From the IMG/VR virus record IMGVR_UViG_3300035698_026135, positions 49,330-113,329 of that record: DNA of 64,000 nucleotides. One strand, written 5' to 3'. Source of the stretch: a virus. Below are positions 2,590 through 49,777 of the stretch, piece by piece. Every line of letters begins with the position of its first letter. Positions within the stretch are counted from its first letter, which is position 1. Made by a program: the position numbers and the translations under genes. Below the pieces are notes generated by a model, which was not told the origin of the DNA, searched no databases, and saw only the letters and a program-made list of their open reading frames with translations.

Positions 2590-4611
2590 ATGCCTGAAAA
2601 TACAAAATCTTTAACTCCTGGACCGAAAGGTCGCAATCCTGTAAAAATGATGCCGGACGGATCTGTCCTAAAGAAGCTGATAAGGCTCTTCAGAACAAAT
2701 TCGGTGATGAAACACCACTTTCAGTCTGATGGATCAGCAAAACCCCAAGGAACCGCAAAGGCATTTTTCAAGAATGCCTACAGTTTCAACCAGAGCGTAA
2801 TCCCCGGATACAGTGGATATGATAGATTTGCTCGCTATTCAGATTATGCAGAGATGGAATCTCATCCGATTCTCGCAAATGCCCTAAATATCGTCGCTGA
2901 CGAGGTAACCCAGAAGAACGAAGACGGAAAAGTCATTCATCTGGTATCTGAGGACCAACAGATAGAGAAGCTCCTTCGCGAGCTGTTTAGCAACATTCTC
3001 AGACTCAACGGCAAACAGGGCTGGAAGCTTGTCCGCAACCTAATCAAATACGGCGATGCCGTCTATCTAATTGATATTACTCCGGAAAATGGTGTTGTTG
3101 GACTTGTCCACATGCCAGCAAATGAAATCGAGAGAGAGGAGGGCTTCGATCGCGATGAACCTTCTGCTGTCAGATTCCGCTGGACAGCCAAGCAGAATAT
3201 CGAAATTCCGAATGCCTACGTGGCACACTTTAGACTAGAAGGGAATGATATGTTTCATCCCTACGGACAGAGCGTCCTAGAGCCTGCTCGCCGCCCATGG
3301 AGGCAGATTGTTCTCCTTGAGGATGCGATGATGGTATATCGAATTACTCGCGCGCCAGAAAGAAGGATTTTTTATCTAGATGTCATGGGAGCACCACCCG
3401 AAGATGTTCCAAACATCATAAACAAGTTCAATGAAACGATTAAGAAAAGTGCCGTAATCGACAACCAAGGAAGAGTAGACCTTCGTTATGGTGGAACCTT
3501 GGCCATGGATGAAGATTATGTCATCCCGGTCAGAGGTGCAGATAGCAGCACGCGAATCGAAACGTTGCCTGGCGGACAAAACCTGGGAGATGTTGAGGAT
3601 ATTGAATTCATTCGAGCTAACCTATTTTCCGCTCTTGGTATCCCCAAAGCATTCTTGACTTTTGATCAAGATATGAAATCAAAACAGGTATTGACACAAG
3701 AGGATATTCGCTTCGCTAGAACTGTAGCCAGAATTCAAGAGGTCGTCATTGACGAACTTATCAAAATTGGAATGATTCACCTATATGTGAAGGGCCTACG
3801 AGGCGAACAGTTGATTAATTTCAAGATTAAAATGACGAATCCCTCGACCGTCGCCGAGCTTCAAAAGATGGAACTCCTTAGGGCGAGAATGGAACTTGTT
3901 ATGAATGCCAAAGATGGCGTATTTGATACGACCTACATCTATAAAGAATTTTTAAATCTCTCCGATGATGCAATCGAGAAGATCAGAAAAGGACAGATTC
4001 AAGATAAGATGTTCCAGGCAAAACTTCTTCAGATAGAGAATGCCCAAGGCATGCAACAAGGCATGCCAGGAATGGATCCAGGTATGGGCGGCGGAATGCC
4101 GATGCCAGGAATGGACCCAGGTATGGGCGGAGCACCACCTCCTATGGGCGGAGCGCCAGGAATGAACCCAGGAGCAGGAATGCCAGTTGAAGGACTTGAG
4201 ATCGACGACGAGGCCGAGGAGCTTGACGAATATAAAGATCTGCACAGAGATTCCTCTGGGAATTTCAGAACAAAGGCAAAACGAGGACTTGAGGGAACAG
4301 ATCTCACAGGAGCAGGCGATCCAGACGATGATCCGTATGACATCGCAGGAATCAGAAGAACCTATGCCTCACCAATGGGATCAAACGAATCGGTAGAACC
4401 GGCCCAGATGACGATGACCGAAGTCTTAAAATTGGTAAAAGAATTTTATAAAGATGAAGATGCGGAGAAGAAGAAAAATTCCAACGTATCTGAATACCCA
4501 CTTGGAATGACGGAAGAGAAATTAAAAGAAATATTTGGCGACGATCAATCGGGCGCTCAGACGAAAGAAATGCTCACAGAAGCCTACCATGAAAGCATCT
4601 GCCGGCTATAA
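2590..4611 (+). CDS. gp20: Portal protein (T4 gp20-like) with low-complexity C-terminal tail
   Basis: RYSDYAEME, LLEDAMMVYRITRAPERRIFYLDV, IETLPGGQNLGDVEDIEF, EDIRFARTVARIQ. Confidence 0.95.
   Translation: MPENTKSLTPGPKGRNPVKMMPDGSVLKKLIRLFRTNSVMKHHFQSDGSAKPQGTAKAFFKNAYSFNQSVIPGYSGYDRFARYSDYAEMESHPILANALNIVADEVTQKNEDGKVIHLVSEDQQIEKLLRELFSNILRLNGKQGWKLVRNLIKYGDAVYLIDITPENGVVGLVHMPANEIEREEGFDRDEPSAVRFRWTAKQNIEIPNAYVAHFRLEGNDMFHPYGQSVLEPARRPWRQIVLLEDAMMVYRITRAPERRIFYLDVMGAPPEDVPNIINKFNETIKKSAVIDNQGRVDLRYGGTLAMDEDYVIPVRGADSSTRIETLPGGQNLGDVEDIEFIRANLFSALGIPKAFLTFDQDMKSKQVLTQEDIRFARTVARIQEVVIDELIKIGMIHLYVKGLRGEQLINFKIKMTNPSTVAELQKMELLRARMELVMNAKDGVFDTTYIYKEFLNLSDDAIEKIRKGQIQDKMFQAKLLQIENAQGMQQGMPGMDPGMGGGMPMPGMDPGMGGAPPPMGGAPGMNPGAGMPVEGLEIDDEAEELDEYKDLHRDSSGNFRTKAKRGLEGTDLTGAGDPDDDPYDIAGIRRTYASPMGSNESVEPAQMTMTEVLKLVKEFYKDEDAEKKKNSNVSEYPLGMTEEKLKEIFGDDQSGAQTKEMLTEAYHESICRL
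4050..4185 (+). repeat. Imperfect coding tandem repeat (MPGMDPGMGG) in the portal tail
   Basis: atgccaggaatgga(t/c)ccaggtatgggcgg occurs twice 39 nt apart, with degenerate copies flanking. Confidence 0.8.
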
Positions 4612-4723: not shown

Positions 4724-4957
4724 ATGACGCTTAATAATCCCATGAAAAATAAAATTACTGCTAAAAGGGTAGCTAGGGCAAAAAGAAGGCTGGTTAACCA
4801 ATATTCTTTGGGTGGAGGTTTTATAAACTCCTACAATTCAGCCATTAATATTGAAGAAAGTCTTGGTTTTTTTAGGCAAAATATTTCGGCATGTTGTCGA
4901 GGAGAATCCAAAACATCTCATGGATATGTTTGGAGACATGAAAATGATACGACATAA
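4724..4957 (+). pseudogene. Stand-alone NUMOD1 DNA-binding domain; homing endonuclease remnant
   Basis: VNQYSLGGGFINSYNS...NISACCRGESKTSHGYVWR matches the NUMOD1 repeats of ORF 36588. No nuclease domain. Confidence 0.75.
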
Positions 4958-5792
4958 CAAAAAAAGAAATACATTTATAGTTTACGAACAATTAATTACA
5001 CTAGTCACACAACTGGCTGCTGGCGGAAATAAAACCGAGGCAAATTTTGTTGTTGAAATCATTAAGGAATGTTTTCACCCAAAAACACATTTGGGCCGAG
5101 AATACAAATTAATGAAGTCCGTCTTCGAAACGAGGCTGGGCTCAAAAGAGGATGCTCAGGATTTACTCAAAGAGGTTCTTTCAGAATCTAAGATTATTTC
5201 CCAAGAAAAACTGGAATTTGAGAAGGGCCGGCTTATAAAAAATATAAATAAATCCTTTTCTAAAGATTTTTATAAAATCCCCATTAAAGAATACAAGCAG
5301 GCCGCATCCCTGCAAATCTTGATGAACGAATCCAGAACCAAAGATGTTGATACAACTCCCTCAGAGAGAGTTCAAATCAAGAAGACTTTAATTGAGACCA
5401 TCACCAGAGCGAAACCTGCTCCCGCCCAAGAGGTTGATAGCCTGACGCTATCTTTGATGATCAAAAAGTTTAATGGAAGATACGCAAAAATAATGAATGA
5501 GGACCAACGACACCTTTTGTCTGCTTGGACAAACTTCATTGTCAACAAGGACGAAACTCAAGCTAAAAAGGTCATCGAAGAGAAGGTCGATAAGTTGAAA
5601 ATTTCACTCTCCTCTTTAATGCATTCAAAAAATCATAAAAACAGTGAACTACGAGGCAGTCTAAAAGAAGCCTACGGCAAACTTGTTGAATCTAAGTTTG
5701 AACTAGATGAAAAATCAATTTATGAAGTTATGAGGTATTTTGACCTTACCGAGGACCTTAAAAATTATGACCAAGAAGAAAAAGAAGTTTGA
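4944..5792 (+). CDS. Head-module protein downstream of portal (function unknown)
   Basis: MIRHNKKRNT N-terminus. GGAG at 4932-4935 supports a start at 4944 (or 4938) rather than 4851. Confidence 0.75.
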   Translation: MIRHNKKRNTFIVYEQLITLVTQLAAGGNKTEANFVVEIIKECFHPKTHLGREYKLMKSVFETRLGSKEDAQDLLKEVLSESKIISQEKLEFEKGRLIKNINKSFSKDFYKIPIKEYKQAASLQILMNESRTKDVDTTPSERVQIKKTLIETITRAKPAPAQEVDSLTLSLMIKKFNGRYAKIMNEDQRHLLSAWTNFIVNKDETQAKKVIEEKVDKLKISLSSLMHSKNHKNSELRGSLKEAYGKLVESKFELDEKSIYEVMRYFDLTEDLKNYDQEEKEV

Positions 5793-7986
5793 TGAAGCAT
5801 CGGTCACAGCCGATATAACAGGATACCTCGCTTCTCGAAAAGCTTTTGCTAACGGAGAGGTGTATAATAAAAATAAGAAGAATAAGAAACCGACTCCTTG
5901 GTACCTGAAAACGGTCAAGGAAGTCCGTGCTGGCGTTCGTAAAGCGCTCACCGAACACAGGCTCCTAAGCGAATCTGATTTGAATTCGTTTGATGATCAC
6001 ATTGAAGATCTAGAGAATCAACTCGCCGACGCCGAAGAGAGATATGCCGAAAAGCCAAAAGATGCCGCACGGCGATTCAAAGTCCGCGAACTAGGTAGTC
6101 AAGTTCAACGATCCCACAAAGCGAAAGAGCTTGGCGGAGACGATTGGAGAAGTTATCTCATTGACCCAGAAGGCCAAAAGAAGATTGACGATACCAAAAA
6201 AGAGAAATCTACACGAAACAAAAAACAATCAGTGGTGGACGATTTCGACAAAGATCCCGAAGTAGAAAACTTTGTCTCTGTTGTGACTCCGGGCATCACA
6301 AAGTGGGTAAAGGCCAACAAAAATAAAACTGGTGTTTGGCTTCTGAATAAGTTTCAAAAATATCTCAACCAGACTAATACGAACGCTAAAGAGCTTAAGG
6401 ACATTGAGAGCCTCGTCAAAGATGTCCTGATTGGCAAATATGCCAATAGTCCGAACCTTACTTCTCCGCTTGGAAAACCTGCGGAGAGCGAAGAGGATAA
6501 AATTAAATATGGCACGCTCGCATTTCTAAAGGCAAAAGAAGGAGAGAAAACACCAGCGCAGCCAATGGATTCGCCAGAGATGAAAGTCAAAGGCTCAGGC
6601 AAACGCACCGCACCAGGCGCAGGAATGGTACAAAAGGGAAGCGATAGGTACCGCAAAAGAATCGCTAAAGAGCCAATGCCTGGAGCAATCGGAGACCTTC
6701 AAAAGCTTCACAAAAAGATAGACGTTGCACCAGAATTTAAAGGCAAGGCTGTTGTTCCACCCAAGAGCGGTCGGGGCGGAAGCTTTGATCCAGGAACAGC
6801 AGGAAAAGAACTTCAGCAATCTTATGTTAAGATTGTAGATGAGATTCTGTATGGAAAAAATGGCAAGTTTGACGAACTCGTAAACATCATTGGCCGTCGC
6901 CATGGCATAAACGATATGCCAAAGGTTGTTGCGCACCTTGCAAGCTTCGAAAAAGAAGGCGTTGACATGACAGAGAAGAATGTAGAAATGCAGTTTTCAG
7001 ACAAGGAGATCGAGGCCCTTGGAGAATTGTCTGTCCTTTCCGATCCAACCGAAGTTGCAAAATTACAGAGTCAGGGATTTACTCAATTTGAGGACGCTCT
7101 AGGAAATTACCTAAGAGACCTCTTTGCCGATAGAGGATATGACATTAAAACGTCCGATGAAGACGATGACTTAGATTCAGATTCCGGCGCCGTGACAGAT
7201 GGGATGAGAGCACTTCTTGCCATCGAATTGAAGGTTAAGAGAAACGAGGTGGACCAAGCCGCTTCCGAAATGAGAAAATCGAATCCAGAAAAGTGGAACA
7301 AGGCTGAGACCGCCGCCCTGAGAAGGTTGAGAGATCTTTCTCCGAGCGATTTCACCAAAGAGATTCAGGGCCGAAAGGGCCGAACCGACGATGCAAAAGA
7401 GCTTGAAAAAAGAAAGGCTGCCCTCAAGCCATCAGTAGACAAAAGAAGAGAGGAAGACGAAGCAATAGTTGCCCCTATGGGAAAATCCGATTTCCAAAGA
7501 AGTCTGGATGCACGGGAATATCACCAAAATATGTCTGCAATGGACAGGGTTATTGCGAGGCAAGAGAAAGAGTCGGCCGAGAATGAAGATCAAGGCCTAT
7601 TTAATCAGAGAGAAAACAAAATGAGTAAAAAAGAATCATACCAATTTAGCATCCTTGAGCTTTTCGAAGGCTTCGAGAATTCTTACGATATCGAGACCGA
7701 CGAAAAAGAAGAAGAGTGGGAGAATGGAACCCTTGCGTCCAAGAAAGAATGGGTTAAAGACCTATCCCTAGAGTCCCTCATGAGGACTATTGTTGAATCC
7801 GAGAAGGATAGACACACCAGAACGCGAAGCCCAGAGCCCGCCGATTGGCTTGAAGGAGATGCAGAAGTAGAAGAGGAACTAAAAAACGTCAATGTTCCTG
7901 ATGGTTGGAATAAAGGAAACACTCCAGATTCATGGCTCGCCGTTGGCAAGCATGCCGGAAAGCTTCCTGACAACGAAAGGAAATAA
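5767..7986 (+). CDS. Large charged hypothetical protein, putative internal head protein; possible nested in-frame gene from 7621
   Basis: GAGGA SD before ATG 5767. Cleavage-like motifs ALTE, LLSE, ELFE, TIVE. Lies in the head operon. Confidence 0.7.
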   Translation: MTKKKKKFDEASVTADITGYLASRKAFANGEVYNKNKKNKKPTPWYLKTVKEVRAGVRKALTEHRLLSESDLNSFDDHIEDLENQLADAEERYAEKPKDAARRFKVRELGSQVQRSHKAKELGGDDWRSYLIDPEGQKKIDDTKKEKSTRNKKQSVVDDFDKDPEVENFVSVVTPGITKWVKANKNKTGVWLLNKFQKYLNQTNTNAKELKDIESLVKDVLIGKYANSPNLTSPLGKPAESEEDKIKYGTLAFLKAKEGEKTPAQPMDSPEMKVKGSGKRTAPGAGMVQKGSDRYRKRIAKEPMPGAIGDLQKLHKKIDVAPEFKGKAVVPPKSGRGGSFDPGTAGKELQQSYVKIVDEILYGKNGKFDELVNIIGRRHGINDMPKVVAHLASFEKEGVDMTEKNVEMQFSDKEIEALGELSVLSDPTEVAKLQSQGFTQFEDALGNYLRDLFADRGYDIKTSDEDDDLDSDSGAVTDGMRALLAIELKVKRNEVDQAASEMRKSNPEKWNKAETAALRRLRDLSPSDFTKEIQGRKGRTDDAKELEKRKAALKPSVDKRREEDEAIVAPMGKSDFQRSLDAREYHQNMSAMDRVIARQEKESAENEDQGLFNQRENKMSKKESYQFSILELFEGFENSYDIETDEKEEEWENGTLASKKEWVKDLSLESLMRTIVESEKDRHTRTRSPEPADWLEGDAEVEEELKNVNVPDGWNKGNTPDSWLAVGKHAGKLPDNERK

Positions 7987-7988
7987 AA

Positions 7989-9701
7989 ATGCCAGTCATC
8001 CTCAAAGAGTATTATCAGCTCTCCCCAAATAAAGAGACCCTAACAGAAATGAGACAGTCTCTAAGCGAGGGCAAACCCTTCATCGTAAAGGGTCTCATTC
8101 AACGCGCCGATGCACAGAATCAAAATGGAAGAATTTATCCATTCGAAATTCTCAAAAAGGTCTTGGATGGCTACGACAAAGATTATGTATCGAAAGGTAT
8201 TGCATTGGGTGAACTCGACCATTGTCTAGCTGGAGATACGGAAGTGTTGACGGAAGATGGCTGGAAAATGCTTCCAGATGTAGAGGTCGGAGAGAATGTA
8301 TATTCCTACAAAGAGGGAGAAATCAAACTTGTGCCGGTAACGAAGACTCACAAATTTGCCTATAATGGAAAAATGATTCGCCTAACCAACGGAAAAAAGA
8401 TGGATCTACTAATGACCCCTAATCACAGAATGATTTTGTGGGATAGAGATAATAAAGATTACTATATGACAGCCGAAGATGCAAGAAAGTCATGGAAGAC
8501 AAAAAGCCCTTCCCTCTCTCATTCTAGCATTAAGTCGTCCGGCGAGTGGAATGACGGAAATAGCGAATCATATTTTGAGATTCCCGATACGGATTATAGA
8601 GTTTCGATGAAGGCGTGGGCCGGTTTGATGGGCATATTTTTATCAGATGGACACGTAGAGGGAAGTCGTTCGGGAAACGTTAGAAACAATAGGGTTACTA
8701 TTCACCAGAAAAAGGCCGAAAATATATCAAAAATAGAAGAATTGTTGTCGTCGACCGAACTTCCCTGGACTAAGTTTATTCACGAAAACGGAAAGCATGA
8801 GTGGAGCCTTCACAACAAAGGGGTTCATGCTTACTTTTCTCAGTTTGGCAATTCGGAAACCAAGTTTATTCCAAGGGATCTACTCTTACAAAATAAAGAT
8901 GTTTTGTCGACCTTGTCAGAATGGCTCCTTGTTGGCGATGGACGAAACAGAATTTCAAAAACCTCGAACTCCACAAGAGCTATTAAAGAGTATTCGACTG
9001 TGTCAACAAGATTGGCTGACGATGTTAGCGAATTGTTTTTCAAATTGGGATATAGGCCCTTCATCAAGACGGAGATAGCCAAAGAAGATTTGTTGATTGA
9101 AGGGAGGGTTGTCAAAAAAGAAAATTGCAAACCTCTCTATACTGTTGCTGGCAACACGACTAGCACATCGCTGGATGCTCGATTTATAAACTTCGAAGAA
9201 ATAGAATATGATGATTATGTTTATTGTATTTCGGATGAAAATAAGAACTTTTTAACACGTAGTCCCAATGGATATGTTTGCTGGACAGGCAATACCGAAG
9301 AGCCCGTTATAGCACTAAAGAATGTCTCCCATAGAATCCTTGAGGTTTGGTGGGAAGGTAAAGATGTGCATGGAAAGGTTCAAATTCTGAACACCCCAGC
9401 AGGAAAGATCGCCCAAGAGATGACACTAGCAGGAATACCTCTCGGTATTTCATCGAGAGCCGTTGGATCCGTATCCAAAAACGAGTCTTCTGGTGCCGAT
9501 ATTGTAGAGGATGACCTTCAAATGATTTGTTTCGATCTTGTCGGCACACCATCTACCCACGGCGCCTTCCTTCACGAGAATCAAAAAGTGCTTAATTCAA
9601 AAGCAAAAGAGATTACGGATTTTGATCCAACAAAAGTTTTGCCCGCCAGCGTAAGAGTAAAGCAAACTCTCGAAGACATCCTGGGCAAAGAAGTAAAATA
9701 A
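7989..9701 (+). CDS. gp21: Prohead core protease (T4 gp21-like) containing an intein
   Basis: QRADAQNQNGRIYP, ALGELDH, LKNVSH, LNTPAG, LGISSRAVGS, FDLVGTPST. Extein is 213 aa after removing the intein. Confidence 0.93.
   Translation: MPVILKEYYQLSPNKETLTEMRQSLSEGKPFIVKGLIQRADAQNQNGRIYPFEILKKVLDGYDKDYVSKGIALGELDHCLAGDTEVLTEDGWKMLPDVEVGENVYSYKEGEIKLVPVTKTHKFAYNGKMIRLTNGKKMDLLMTPNHRMILWDRDNKDYYMTAEDARKSWKTKSPSLSHSSIKSSGEWNDGNSESYFEIPDTDYRVSMKAWAGLMGIFLSDGHVEGSRSGNVRNNRVTIHQKKAENISKIEELLSSTELPWTKFIHENGKHEWSLHNKGVHAYFSQFGNSETKFIPRDLLLQNKDVLSTLSEWLLVGDGRNRISKTSNSTRAIKEYSTVSTRLADDVSELFFKLGYRPFIKTEIAKEDLLIEGRVVKKENCKPLYTVAGNTTSTSLDARFINFEEIEYDDYVYCISDENKNFLTRSPNGYVCWTGNTEEPVIALKNVSHRILEVWWEGKDVHGKVQILNTPAGKIAQEMTLAGIPLGISSRAVGSVSKNESSGADIVEDDLQMICFDLVGTPSTHGAFLHENQKVLNSKAKEITDFDPTKVLPASVRVKQTLEDILGKEVK
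8223..9293 (+). mobile_element. Intein (357 aa) with LAGLIDADG homing endonuclease, in the prohead protease
   Basis: Starts CLAGDTEVLTEDGW. Block B TPNHRM. LAGLIDADG-like GLMGIFLSDG and EWLLVGDG. Ends YVYC...CWTGN; +1 residue is Thr. Confidence 0.92.
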
Positions 9702-9733: not shown

Positions 9734-10084
9734 ATGAATATAAAGAAACTATCTTTGTTAATTGAGCGTATGGTAGCGAAGCAACTCCAGAAACACCTTA
9801 AGCCCATGATCAACGAGGTTCTTGCAGAAAAATACCTCTCTGTGCTTACAGAGCAGAAGGCTCCCGGCCTACAGGATTCTTTTCCAGCATACACACAAGA
9901 AACCAGGCCCACAACCGCACCTCCCGTAGAAGACGGCAGAAAACAACTACAGGAAAGAAGGGAAGCTTTGATAGCGAAGCTTACCGATGGAGACCCAGGA
10001 ATGGCTATGCTTTATGAGGGTACAAGCGCACTCGACGAAGTTGTCGATGATGATGGCGTTGATATCTCTCGGTTTGGATTTTAA
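9734..10084 (+). CDS. Hypothetical head-module protein
   Basis: AAGGA SD; MINE and VLTE cleavage-like motifs. Confidence 0.7.
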   Translation: MNIKKLSLLIERMVAKQLQKHLKPMINEVLAEKYLSVLTEQKAPGLQDSFPAYTQETRPTTAPPVEDGRKQLQERREALIAKLTDGDPGMAMLYEGTSALDEVVDDDGVDISRFGF

Positions 10085-10086
10085 TT

Positions 10087-10419
10087 ATGGATAAATTTAA
10101 TATATTTGGATTTCTTTTTGAGGGTGGAATGTTGAGCGAAGAGGGAGAAGAGGAAGAGCAACCCGAAGCTGAACCCGAAGCTCCACAACAGCAACAGCAA
10201 GCTGAGCCGACACCAGAGAAAAATGCTGAAGTCGTTAGTCCCACGACAAGTCCTTTCGATCAATTTACTGGAGAAACAATTCAGAATATTGAATTTCAAC
10301 CACATGAAAATGGTGGAAGTTTTACAATTAAAGTCGCCAACTCGAATTTGCCAATCATTATTAGTTGGGCTGGCGATCGAGTCACCATGAAGCACAAGGA
10401 TATTGTCTCACTAACGTAG
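10087..10419 (+). CDS. Hypothetical protein with capsid-targeting-like N-terminus
   Basis: MDKFNIFGFLFE..MLSE followed by an acidic/Gln-rich linker. Confidence 0.7.
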   Translation: MDKFNIFGFLFEGGMLSEEGEEEEQPEAEPEAPQQQQQAEPTPEKNAEVVSPTTSPFDQFTGETIQNIEFQPHENGGSFTIKVANSNLPIIISWAGDRVTMKHKDIVSLT

Positions 10420-10447: not shown

Positions 10448-10450
10448 CAT

Positions 10451-11536
10451 GTGAAACTGAAGCTTACAGACATTCTGAAGGAATTGGTTGGAGGTCCCAG
10501 CCTTCGTCCTCAAGGCCCTTCAGGCGCAAACCAACATCTATTCCCACACCATGGCCTATACGGCAAATTGGGCGGAGGGAAGCCTAAAGCTTCCAATAAA
10601 GCCCCATATAACGATAAGGATTCAGATTTAGAGAACGGCGATAAAATGGCCGACGAAGCACAACCAAAAATAGAAGAGCTTCCTTTGGAGAATCTATTTA
10701 AATTTACCACATCGGCCAACGATAATACATCGTTTCCTCGTCCTCCAACTATGGGAGCGGGATCAATGGCCGCATATGGAAAAGACACTAATGCGATCGA
10801 CTCCTTCGATACGAGCGATGAAGGAAATGAGGAGCGATTCAAGACACTTAAGGGCCGCGAAGACCAAAGAGCTAAGATTACAGAGCTTGCAGGGGGGAGA
10901 GAGAGACACCCTCGCGATGACAATGATTACTCCACCAAGCAAGGCTGGGCCAACGGAATTCCTGGCCGAGACAAAAAAGACATCGAAGCTGGTGATTTAA
11001 AAGTAGATGAAATGATGAAAGATAGAGCACCCGATGCTGACGCTGGAAAGATCTATAAAAGGATTGTAGGAGAATCTCATGCTGGCCCACTCAAGGAAGG
11101 GGGCGCCGATTCGTCCTTTTCGAGAATGAATTTACAAAAAACGATGAAATCGCCCCAAAGTGATTTAAATTTTTGGAATATTATTGATAGAGAAAATATA
11201 TATCTATTAACGAACCCTAACAAAAAGGAAAAGAATGACAAAAGGAAAAGAAGAAAAGTACAGATTGATAAGAGATTCCACAAAGCGGCTGAGCTAACTC
11301 ACGTCCCCGTTGTGGCTAAGCACCTAGAAGTGAAAGCAGAAGAGGTGAATGGAGACATTAGAAAACTAATAAAGAAATTTTGCAAAAAAGTGAGAAGAGA
11401 AGAAGTTCTTAAACCATTTTATGGAAAATTGATGCACTATACTCCAAAGTCTGAAATCAAAAGACAGAAAAAACTGTCTGCGATATATTCTCAGAAAAAG
11501 AAGGAAGAAAAAGAAGAAAAGGAAGAAATTTTATAA
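10451..11536 (+). CDS. Putative internal head protein fused in frame to a C-terminal ribosomal protein bS21-like domain
   Basis: N-terminus MKLKLTDILKE, disordered middle, bS21-like C-terminus. The fusion may come from a 1-nt deletion at 11240-11243. Confidence 0.7.
   Translation: MKLKLTDILKELVGGPSLRPQGPSGANQHLFPHHGLYGKLGGGKPKASNKAPYNDKDSDLENGDKMADEAQPKIEELPLENLFKFTTSANDNTSFPRPPTMGAGSMAAYGKDTNAIDSFDTSDEGNEERFKTLKGREDQRAKITELAGGRERHPRDDNDYSTKQGWANGIPGRDKKDIEAGDLKVDEMMKDRAPDADAGKIYKRIVGESHAGPLKEGGADSSFSRMNLQKTMKSPQSDLNFWNIIDRENIYLLTNPNKKEKNDKRKRRKVQIDKRFHKAAELTHVPVVAKHLEVKAEEVNGDIRKLIKKFCKKVRREEVLKPFYGKLMHYTPKSEIKRQKKLSAIYSQKKKEEKEEKEEIL
11235..11536 (+). CDS. rpsU: Ribosomal protein bS21 homolog (domain from about 11312; likely ancestral start ATG 11235, out of frame as written)
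   Basis: LEVKAEEVNGDIRKLIKKFCKKVRREEVLKPF..LMHYTPKSEIKRQKKLSA aligns by eye with the bS21 pattern (V..NE..D.ALRRFKR..K.GVL.E.R.R.FYEKP...RKR.K..A). Sits directly before scaffold and major capsid genes. Confidence 0.75.
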
Positions 11537-11599
11537 TTTCTCTGCCTTTTAGGAAATTATTGCATAATTAAATGTAAATCTAAAGGAGTTAAATAAACA

Positions 11600-12559
11600 A
11601 TGGCAAAACGCAATATTCTTCAAGAATCGATTGTTGAAGCAAAACAACTAAAAGAGGCTGCTTACGAAAATGCCCAGAGTGTGCTCATGGAGCACTTGAA
11701 GGATAATGTAAAGCAGTTTGTTGACGACCAGATTAATGAGTCTCTTCTTACTGAAGCTGACGAGGTTTCCGACGCAGATTCATGCGGTGACGATGAAGAA
11801 GTACAAGAAGAAGGTTACAACATGGAAGGAGAAGAGGACATGACAGACGATGAACTAGACCTAGAGGAAGTTCCCGAAGAAGAGGAAGAAGACGAAGAAG
11901 AAGAGTGTGGAGAAGACGAGGACGTGTCCGAAGGCTTCAGCGAAGAGGATCTAGAAGAAGCGATTAATGCTGCTTTGTCAGAAGTAACCCACGGCGGACT
12001 CGGAGACATGGATTGGATTGAGAACGATGGCGAGAAACACGGCACCGGGATCGAAGATTTTGATTCGAAAGAAGACGGATGGGAAAAGAAACGCGCTCCC
12101 AAAGCAACCGATGCTAAACTGTACGGTGGCGAGCAATACCACGAGAGTCTCAAAGCGAAGATTGCATCTCTTGTAAAAGAGAATGTTACGCTTAAAAAGG
12201 CTCACAAGAAACTCTCAGAGGCTCTTAGTGAAACAAATCTTTTTAACGCAAAATTGTATTACGCTACACAGCTAATGCAGAATGAGTCGCTTAACTCAGA
12301 TATCAAGACCAAGATAATTAAAAAAATGGACAAGGCCACGACTCGAAACGAGGCGAAAGGCATTTATGAGTCCGTAGAATTTGCTATTGGATTAATGGGT
12401 GAATCAAAGAAGACTTCCAAGAAGTCAAAACGTTCACTTTCCGAAGCTTATGGTTCTGAAGGCAAGTCAGCTGGCACAGGTGCCGGCGTAACAAATACAG
12501 CTCTTACTGAGTCGTATATACGTCGCAGCCAAATCCTCGCTGGTATTGTCAAAGAATAA
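11600..12559 (+). CDS. Prohead scaffold/core protein
   Basis: Very acidic, coiled-coil, LSETNLFNAKLYY, C-terminal RSQILAGI. AAGGAG SD. Directly upstream of the major capsid gene. Confidence 0.8.
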   Translation: MAKRNILQESIVEAKQLKEAAYENAQSVLMEHLKDNVKQFVDDQINESLLTEADEVSDADSCGDDEEVQEEGYNMEGEEDMTDDELDLEEVPEEEEEDEEEECGEDEDVSEGFSEEDLEEAINAALSEVTHGGLGDMDWIENDGEKHGTGIEDFDSKEDGWEKKRAPKATDAKLYGGEQYHESLKAKIASLVKENVTLKKAHKKLSEALSETNLFNAKLYYATQLMQNESLNSDIKTKIIKKMDKATTRNEAKGIYESVEFAIGLMGESKKTSKKSKRSLSEAYGSEGKSAGTGAGVTNTALTESYIRRSQILAGIVKE

Positions 12560-12580: not shown

Positions 12581-14209
12581 ATGAATTTTAAAGAATTAAC
12601 ACAAGATACTCGTAACGAGCGAACTTCACAGTCCGCTATCTCACGAAAGAAAGTTGCCAAATGGCAAAAGACAGGTCTTCTCGAAGGCTTAAAGGATGCC
12701 CGCACGAAAGCCAATATGGCTCGACTGCTTGAGAATCAGGCGGCATCGATGCTTAATGAGGCATCAGACACATCCGACGTAAAGGGATTTCAGGCTATTG
12801 CCTTCCCTATGGTACGTCGTGTTTTCGGCAACCTTTTGGTTGGCGAAATTGCATCGGTTCAGCCGATGGCACTTCCATCTGGTCTAGTCTTTTGGCTCGA
12901 CTTTACACATGGTAGTACCGGAAAGGCTGGTACTGGCCGAGACGACTGGTCATCCGGTGGCTCGGTATTTGGAGATCCCGTTGGACCTCTTACCGGTGGT
13001 GCTGATGGAACTGGAGGTCACTACAACCTTCATAATAGTTATACTCAATTCGAAGCTTCGGCTGCGGTTGGTCTAGCTTCGTCAGGTTCGGCAACTTGGC
13101 TTGAGGTCGAATATGATCTTGAGCTTTCGTCCGCTGTAGCTGGCGACACTCTTTGGAAGGTCACTGTTGACCTCGACGAGAATGCTGCAATCACAAATGT
13201 GGATCAATCAAACTATAAGAGTTTTGCCATCTCGGGAGCAGTGAACGCAGGTGTCACTCGCTACTACAGACGTCACAATTTGTTTGATACTGCCACCAAT
13301 ATCCTAACTGTCTTTTACACTGGTGCCGCTGCGCTCGATTCGGGCTCGGCTGTTCAAGTTGCTTATGTCAAGAAGGATGTTCTTGGAGCAGATACGAATG
13401 GTACAACCTTGAGCCCCGCGTTCGAGTATGCATTTGATAGTGCAGATGACATTCCAGAGATTGATATCAAAATTACATCTCATCCGGTCACAGCTAACAG
13501 TCGTAAGTTGAAAGTCAAGTGGACTCCAGAAGTCGCGCAGGATCTTAACGCTTATCACACTGTTGACGCTGAAGCTGAGCTTACTCAGGTGATGGCCGAT
13601 CAGGTGGCACTCGATATTGATTCCGAGGTACTTCAAGATATGGTCAACAATGCGAAAGCAGCGAAATACTACTGGGACCGTCGTCCTGGAACGTATGTCG
13701 ATAAGGCAACAGGCGTGGAGATCACTGGACCTTCCTTCACGGGTAATGTTCAGGAGTGGTATCTTACTCTCATGGAAACAGTCCTTGACGTAAGTAACAC
13801 GATCCACCGCAAGAACTTGCGCTCAGGAGCTAACTTCATGGTGACATCACCTGACGTAGCAACAATCCTTGAGTCAATGGTTCAATGGCGTCCTTCGATT
13901 GATGTTGGCGATCCAAAGCAAACTAAATACTCGATGGGTATTGAGAAAATTGGTACACTTGCAAACCGTTTCACGGTCTACAAAGCTCCTTTCTTCTTCC
14001 GTAATATGATCCTAGTTGGATTTAAGGGAGACGAGTGGCTTGAGACTGGATACGTCTATGCTCCGTACGTTCCGATGATCGTTACACCAACGATCTACGA
14101 GCCCGATAACTTCACTCCACGCAAGGCGGTCATGACCCGTTATGCGAAACAGATCATCCGTGGTGATTATTACGGTCTCGTGGTCGTGAAAGGAATGAAT
14201 ATTTTCTAA
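12581..14209 (+). CDS. gp23: Major capsid protein (T4 gp23-like)
   Basis: KWQKTGLLEGL, LLENQ, FPMVRRVF, SVQPMALPSGLVFWLDF, RKLKVKWTPEVAQDLNAYH, GYVYAPYVP, FTPRKAVMTRYA. Likely maturation cut LNE60|A61. Confidence 0.97.
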   Translation: MNFKELTQDTRNERTSQSAISRKKVAKWQKTGLLEGLKDARTKANMARLLENQAASMLNEASDTSDVKGFQAIAFPMVRRVFGNLLVGEIASVQPMALPSGLVFWLDFTHGSTGKAGTGRDDWSSGGSVFGDPVGPLTGGADGTGGHYNLHNSYTQFEASAAVGLASSGSATWLEVEYDLELSSAVAGDTLWKVTVDLDENAAITNVDQSNYKSFAISGAVNAGVTRYYRRHNLFDTATNILTVFYTGAAALDSGSAVQVAYVKKDVLGADTNGTTLSPAFEYAFDSADDIPEIDIKITSHPVTANSRKLKVKWTPEVAQDLNAYHTVDAEAELTQVMADQVALDIDSEVLQDMVNNAKAAKYYWDRRPGTYVDKATGVEITGPSFTGNVQEWYLTLMETVLDVSNTIHRKNLRSGANFMVTSPDVATILESMVQWRPSIDVGDPKQTKYSMGIEKIGTLANRFTVYKAPFFFRNMILVGFKGDEWLETGYVYAPYVPMIVTPTIYEPDNFTPRKAVMTRYAKQIIRGDYYGLVVVKGMNIF

Positions 14210-49304: not shown

Positions 49305-49777
49305 ATGATTAGACCAAGTGAACAAGAGTGGTTCTTATATGTGGGGACTACAAAAAAGAATTGGGAATAAAGGACCTAGTTGAAAAGTATGGCGTTGGCA
49401 AGCACGCCATATACAAACAACTAAAAAAAAGAGATATAGAGCTGCGCTCTCTACGGGCTGATGAAGACGGAAGGCAGTGTACGACCGTTCCGGAGAGAAA
49501 AAAGATTTTTCAAAGATCTAAAAACAGGGCCAAAAAGTACGGAATCGATTTTAATTTAGACGTTGAAGATATCGTCATACCAAAACGATGTCCCGTTTTC
49601 GACAAAGAATTGATATATAAAGATCACGACTGGTGTGCCTCTATTGATAGAATTGATCCAAATGTTGGTTATATTAAGGGAAATATTCAAATCATTTCAA
49701 ATAGAGCGAACATCATAAAGAATAATGCAACCACCGAAGAGATAGGAATATTGTTTGAGTACATGAAGAAGCTTTAA
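49305..49777 (+). pseudogene. Frameshifted HTH plus HNH-type homing endonuclease
   Basis: ATG 49305 (MIRPSEQE) is one base out of frame with VVLICGDY.. from 49328. C-terminus IVIPKRCPVF..ASIDRIDP..GYIKGNIQIISNRAN..K. Confidence 0.68.

Follow-up and report, generated by a model that had tools for sequence, protein, structure and literature searches.

A single open reading frame in the head gene region of a virus appears to join a capsid-targeted protein to ribosomal protein bS21, which raises the question of whether this virus carries a ribosomal protein in its virions or whether one missing base has merged two ordinary genes. The frame lies within the window, a stretch of 64,000 nucleotides (positions 49,330 to 113,329) that forms part of the 113-kb IMG/VR virus record IMGVR_UViG_3300035698_026135, for which CheckV estimates a completeness of 52%. 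The original prediction, made from the sequence of the window, was that the fused bS21 would be packaged, released by the prohead protease, and injected at the start of infection.

Reading Frames at the Locus

According to the sequence and the list of open reading frames, positions 10451–11536 on the plus strand form one open frame as assembled, running from a GTG at 10451 to a TAA ending at 11536 and encoding 361 aa that begin with MKLKLTDILKE. Four [LI]xE sites occur in this protein, at residues 9–11 (LKE), 74–76 (IEE), 143–145 (ITE), and 214–216 (LKE). The frame, its first residues, and its internal xxE sites are present exactly as had been claimed. The GTG start is embedded in ATGTGA (10449–10454), where an ATG is followed by an immediate stop in another frame. 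No obvious Shine–Dalgarno sequence precedes this GTG, yet the MKL(K/S)L start is kept in relatives.

The alternative reading that accompanied the original prediction, in which one additional A yields an upstream stop and a second start with its own Shine–Dalgarno sequence, was also found in the sequence. A Shine–Dalgarno-like AAGGA is read on the plus strand at 11225–11229, 5 nt before an ATG (11235–11237) that is out of frame with the 361-aa ORF and opens only a 20-aa peptide in the window as assembled. When one A was added to either of two short runs, 11240–11243 or 11246–11249, translation gave a 272-aa upstream protein, ending in STD at a TGA (11266–11268), and a 100-aa product starting at ATG 11235. 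Both products fall inside the size ranges of their respective relatives. With the extra A in place, the upstream gene spans 10451–11268 (+) instead of running on to 11536, and the second gene, encoding a phage bS21 of 100 aa with a pI of 10.0, spans 11235–11536 (+) and shares 35 nt with the upstream gene, read in the +1 frame.

Gene Neighborhood

The locus is situated in a T4-type head module, all genes of which are on the plus strand. The module begins with a large terminase gene (TerL, 939–2588) and a gp20-type portal gene of the gp20 family (2590–4611), followed by an ORF without a family match (4851–5792). The interval between portal and protease also contains a Lys/Glu-rich ORF of 748 aa (5740–7986) that belongs to no family in Pfam or PHROG. 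Where this ORF truly begins is uncertain, as the TTG listed as its start lies about 50 nt inside the end of the preceding ORF. The gp21-type prohead serine protease gene (7989–9701) was recognized by both Pfam (PF03420, 6.5e-17) and PHROG (phrog_207, 1e-36) and contains an intein, with matches to Intein_splicing (3.3e-6), LAGLIDADG_3 (1.5e-5), and Hint located inside a split Peptidase_S77 match. Because a LAGLIDADG intein interrupts the protease gene, head maturation would depend on protein splicing.

Between the protease and the fused frame lie two small ORFs of 116 aa (9734–10084; LIE at residues 9–11) and 110 aa (10087–10419; LFE at residues 10–12), whose order is kept in L002, a related metagenomic contig, at 355–777 and 792–1196. 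Downstream, at the position of gp22, is a gene for an acidic, helical, scaffold-like protein (11600–12559; IVE at residues 11–13), assigned by position and composition and without a family match in Pfam or PHROG. The gp23-type major capsid protein gene follows (12581–14209; PF07068, 1.2e-63; phrog_138, 9e-62). This gene order confirmed the claim that the frame lies just before the scaffold-like and capsid genes. All three ORF neighbors carry an (L/I)xE motif ending at residues 11–13. The 116-aa and 110-aa proteins are candidate prohead-core proteins and, like the scaffold-like protein, possible analogues of the T4 core proteins.

A blastn search with 6 kb against phage records gave only short matches in the capsid gene (13500–14200), to Flavobacterium phages and to one uncultured 484-kb phage. 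Strong Shine–Dalgarno motifs stand before the genes of the window, which by our own reading argues against a Bacteroidota host.

Relatives of the Two Parts

The N-terminal part of the 361-aa query had six relatives of 263–306 aa and 35–65% identity, which cover its first ~72% and terminate, give or take a few residues, at the stop created by one extra A. For the bS21 part, an exhaustive phmmer search of 1.84 billion representatives gave 21 relatives, all of them free-standing proteins of 75–108 aa (21/21) and none fused. A fused bS21 was also sought among longer proteins, a search that is weak evidence, and none was found. Scans of IMG/VR viral contigs gave no relative, and the metagenome scan gave L002 only. 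A tblastn search of 50,697 phage records gave no match, whether the query was the whole ORF or only its bS21 part.

Two of these relatives show how the genes are arranged. The closest bS21 relative, P0007 (96 aa, 73% identity), begins with MKRKRRQVKI, and its start methionine aligns exactly with the out-of-frame ATG at 11235 of the window. This protein and P0001, a 266-aa relative of the upstream part, are each recorded on a single contig of 2146 b. A backtracking search showed that a single DNA of 45 nt, read in two frames with the second at +1, can encode both the C-terminal 14 aa and stop of P0001 and the N-terminal 14 aa of P0007. This solution was unique among the tail lengths and frames tried. 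From the shared contig size and this computation, we infer that the two genes are adjacent. L002 (50% identity) has the same layout, with upstream ORFs in the order of 140 aa, 134 aa, and 308 aa. There, a +1-frame ORF from ATG 2080 (MNKKTKL...EPLQVTLEEVKG) overlaps the upstream stop at 2121–2123, after which the contig ends, and its EPLQVTLEEVKG aligns with HLEVKAEEVNG of the window. The bS21 gene overlaps its upstream neighbor by 44 nt in both P0001/P0007 and L002, and by 35 nt in the window with the A added. Overall, a +1 overlap of 35–44 nt, with Lys/Arg-rich tails in both frames, is kept in three lineages that are 50–65% identical, and a run of seven As lies inside the overlap of L002.

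The fused architecture is not conserved; every relative is unfused. Comparison with related genomes consequently speaks against the fusion that had been predicted, as the relatives carry separate genes.

The same overlap could also be taken to mean that the two-gene form gives both products, with a minor fusion made by +1 ribosomal frameshifting or by transcriptional slippage that loses one A, and with the four-A contig of the window mimicking the shifted state. This would agree with the retention of an A-rich +1 overlap in three lineages and with the seven-A run of L002, and by our own reasoning the AAA AGG with which the overlap begins in the window could favor +1 slippage. However, no defined shift site is common to the three lineages, and the A-richness is explained by Lys/Arg-rich coding in both frames. 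Runs of four to five As are, moreover, too short for efficient transcriptional slippage. We consider production of a fusion by either route most improbable.

The A-Run in Other Samples

Parts of the stretch 10700–11900 were found, in small shares, in six metagenome runs, all from salt lakes, and four of these were aligned; no RNA run was listed as containing it. The runs contained 12–19% of the sampled words. The A-run is seen in two of them (X2 and X3), which are salt-lake metagenomes from different studies and years, whereas X1 and X4 do not cover it. Apart from one extra A behind 11245 in each, the Logan contigs of X2 (152 b) and X3 (249 b) agree with the window at every position, over 151 and 248 b respectively. 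The run at 11246–11249 (+) is one base shorter in the window than in these two runs, and the missing A merges the two frames. The five-A form was observed in assembled contigs with a depth of ~3 and not in raw reads or a read pile-up. In these contigs of the same phage, the fused frame is not reproduced, as the extra A separates the frames.

The difference is unlikely to be noise, since the same indel occurs in two runs and falls at the single site where it recovers the gene structure shared by every relative. The other genes of the window are tightly packed and look intact, which speaks against a contig full of errors and means that the four-A form could be a real allele. We conclude that the four-A state is a rare or minority allele or else an error made locally during assembly. 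The caveat in the original prediction, that one missing A might hide two genes, was the correct reading, but it had placed the base in the run at 11240–11243, whereas the extra A of the other samples falls in 11246–11249. With the base in the second run, the N-terminus of bS21 becomes MTKGKRRKVQ instead of MTKRKRRKVQ.

If the four-A form were a genuine functional allele, a head protein bearing a capsid-targeting sequence (CTS) would be packaged together with the fused bS21, trimmed by the prohead protease, and injected. The window as assembled does contain one ORF whose N-terminal (L/I)xE is conserved, the gene for a gp21-type protease is nearby, and T4 CTS fusions carry foreign proteins into capsids (PMC9026906). 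On the other hand, there is no fused relative, and the two other samples of the same phage are unfused. In the four-A form, no free bS21 is possible from ATG 11235. Past residue 216, the 361-aa ORF also has no further [LI]xE ahead of the bS21 start at about residue 262, so trimming by the protease would leave a tail of ~46 aa and no clean release of bS21. A functional fused allele is therefore very unlikely.

Identity of the C-Terminal Domain

The predicted bS21-like domain was examined by profile and structural comparisons. Against the window's own domain, PF01165 (Ribosomal_S21) scored 20.2 bits (E 4.8e-4), and 20.9 bits in a second search, which is below the Pfam gathering cut-off of 27 bits. 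Sub-threshold matches to PF01165 were also obtained from archaeal control genomes, which should lack bS21. As the score alone was insufficient in light of these matches, a sequence family was built. PF01165 was matched by 15 of the 23 aligned family members (best E 3.8e-14), and PHROG 21469, "ribosomal protein S21", by four. A profile of the family searched against the PDB retrieved 27 distinct sequences, every one of them a bS21 chain (27/27; best E 4.5e-7).

The AF2 model of the 100-aa bS21 is helical, with a pLDDT of 84.5. Foldseek gave no significant match for this model in the PDB. In a structural comparison with 48,161 chains, the top two matches were both bS21, with Z scores of 5.3 and 4.7 that are barely above the helical background and an rmsd of about 10 Å. 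These matches align 68 residues, nearly all of the 69–70-residue bS21 chains, at ~20% identity. The conserved core comprises residues ~29–99 of the 99-aa query and covers nearly the full length of the solved chains, and in this it resembles cellular bS21 (rpsU); it differs from cellular bS21 in its low identity to the solved chains and in its additional extensions, a basic one of ~35 aa at the N-terminus and a Lys/Glu-rich one at the C-terminus.

An unrelated Lys/Arg-rich helical protein could resemble bS21 by composition without being a working bS21. Such a protein might likewise score below the Pfam cut-off, as archaeal controls do, and give no significant Foldseek match and a best structural Z of 5.3. 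It would not readily account for the matches of 15/23 relatives to PF01165, for a PDB profile search in which all 27 matches are bS21, for the four PHROG S21 matches, or for bS21 chains being the best two of 48,161 structural comparisons. A resemblance by composition alone is accordingly highly improbable. On the evidence of the sequence profiles, we accept the C-terminal ~75 aa as ribosomal protein bS21 from a divergent phage clade. The domain call of the original prediction was upheld in this way by the family and its PDB matches; as for the direct comparison with Ribosomal_S21, the domain does match, as do most of its relatives, but its own score stays under the cut-off.

The Upstream Protein

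The upstream protein had no match in Pfam, PHROG, or (by profile) the PDB. It is predicted to be largely disordered, and its AF2 model, with a mean pLDDT of 47, was unusable for a fold search. An N-terminal (L/I)xE is present at residues 9–11 in all relatives, L002 included, as LLE, LKE, or IKE, and an [IV]xE at about residues 143–145 is likewise kept in all relatives. The leader originally likened to the T4 capsid-targeting sequence is thus both present and conserved, although a loose N-terminal (L/I)xE motif is found in 14 of 60 ORFs in the window (23%). In T4, the first ten residues of IPIII are enough for capsid targeting, and gp21 cleaves after Glu in a short motif such as the LIE at residue 9 of gp21 itself (PMC9026906).

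Given the pattern of four such motifs in a row, their conservation, and the adjacent gp21-type protease, the upstream protein is most plausibly a core or internal head protein that undergoes processing. It resembles the CTS-bearing core and internal head proteins of T4 that are cleaved by gp21 (IPI–III, Alt, gp67, and gp68; PMC9026906) in belonging to a T4-type head module with a gp21-type protease and in having a leader of ~10 residues that ends in (L/I)xE. It differs from them in that no sequence homology to a T4 protein or to any other family was detected, and its cleavage and packaging are putative.

Discussion

The locus is very probably two overlapping genes, merged in the window by one missing A, of which the second encodes a free-standing phage bS21. 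The two-gene structure is demonstrated by the relatives, and membership in the bS21 family by the profile matches. The first gene would give a largely disordered head-module protein of ~272 aa that may be processed by the gp21-type protease. The second has its own Shine–Dalgarno sequence and would give a free bS21 of 100 aa from ATG 11235, its first 35 nt coinciding, in the +1 frame, with the end of the upstream gene. Expression of this bS21 is probably late, alongside that of the head genes, and may involve translational coupling. By analogy with known phage bS21, the protein may replace host bS21 on 30S subunits and bias initiation towards phage mRNAs. As a separate protein, bS21 lacks an (L/I)xE leader and thus any signal that would direct it to the capsid. 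The packaging, protease release, and injection that had been predicted are not supported, as the fusion on which they depend is contradicted by the separate genes of the relatives and by the five-A form in two other runs.

Were the four-A form a real allele after all, or a mimic of a low-level +1 shift, some virions would contain bS21 attached to a core protein that is targeted to the capsid, and a ribosomal protein would be delivered into the next host. We regard this as very unlikely. Delivery of a ribosomal protein by virions would have been new as an infection strategy; what the evidence favors is a one-base artefact or a rare allele. Single-base frame merges in A-rich overlaps can make false "fusion" proteins in metagenomic phage contigs.

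With bS21 as a separate gene, the arrangement beside protease and capsid genes is one that has already been described. Published phage bS21 genes are generally 2–4 genes from the prohead protease and capsid genes, and in 310 of 900 genomes a protease lies within ten genes (Chen et al. 2022, PMC9723584). The bS21 of pelagiphage HTVC008M enters E. coli ribosomes (Mizuno et al. 2019, PMC6375957). The protein of the window is similar to that of HTVC008M and those of Chen et al. in being small, basic, and free-standing in a large lytic-type aquatic phage, and its gene is likewise close to the prohead protease and capsid genes (1–3 genes). In contrast, the gene runs in the same direction as the head genes, whereas the bS21 genes of the clades of Chen et al. 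are on the reverse strand (PMC9723584), and, together with its relatives, it differs from the published clades in the out-of-frame overlap with the upstream head gene. It is also very divergent from published phage bS21, given the absence of a tblastn match, the score below the Pfam cut-off, and the basic N-terminal extension.

With this locus, the known phage bS21 genes gain a T4-like clade from salt lakes that is very divergent. The new, small detail is the 35–44 nt out-of-frame overlap with the upstream head gene in three lineages. Phage bS21 is highly expressed late, together with structural genes (PMC9723584). The overlap is consistent with co-expression with late head genes and, through this, with the proposal in the literature that phage bS21 supports the late, large-scale synthesis of structural proteins.
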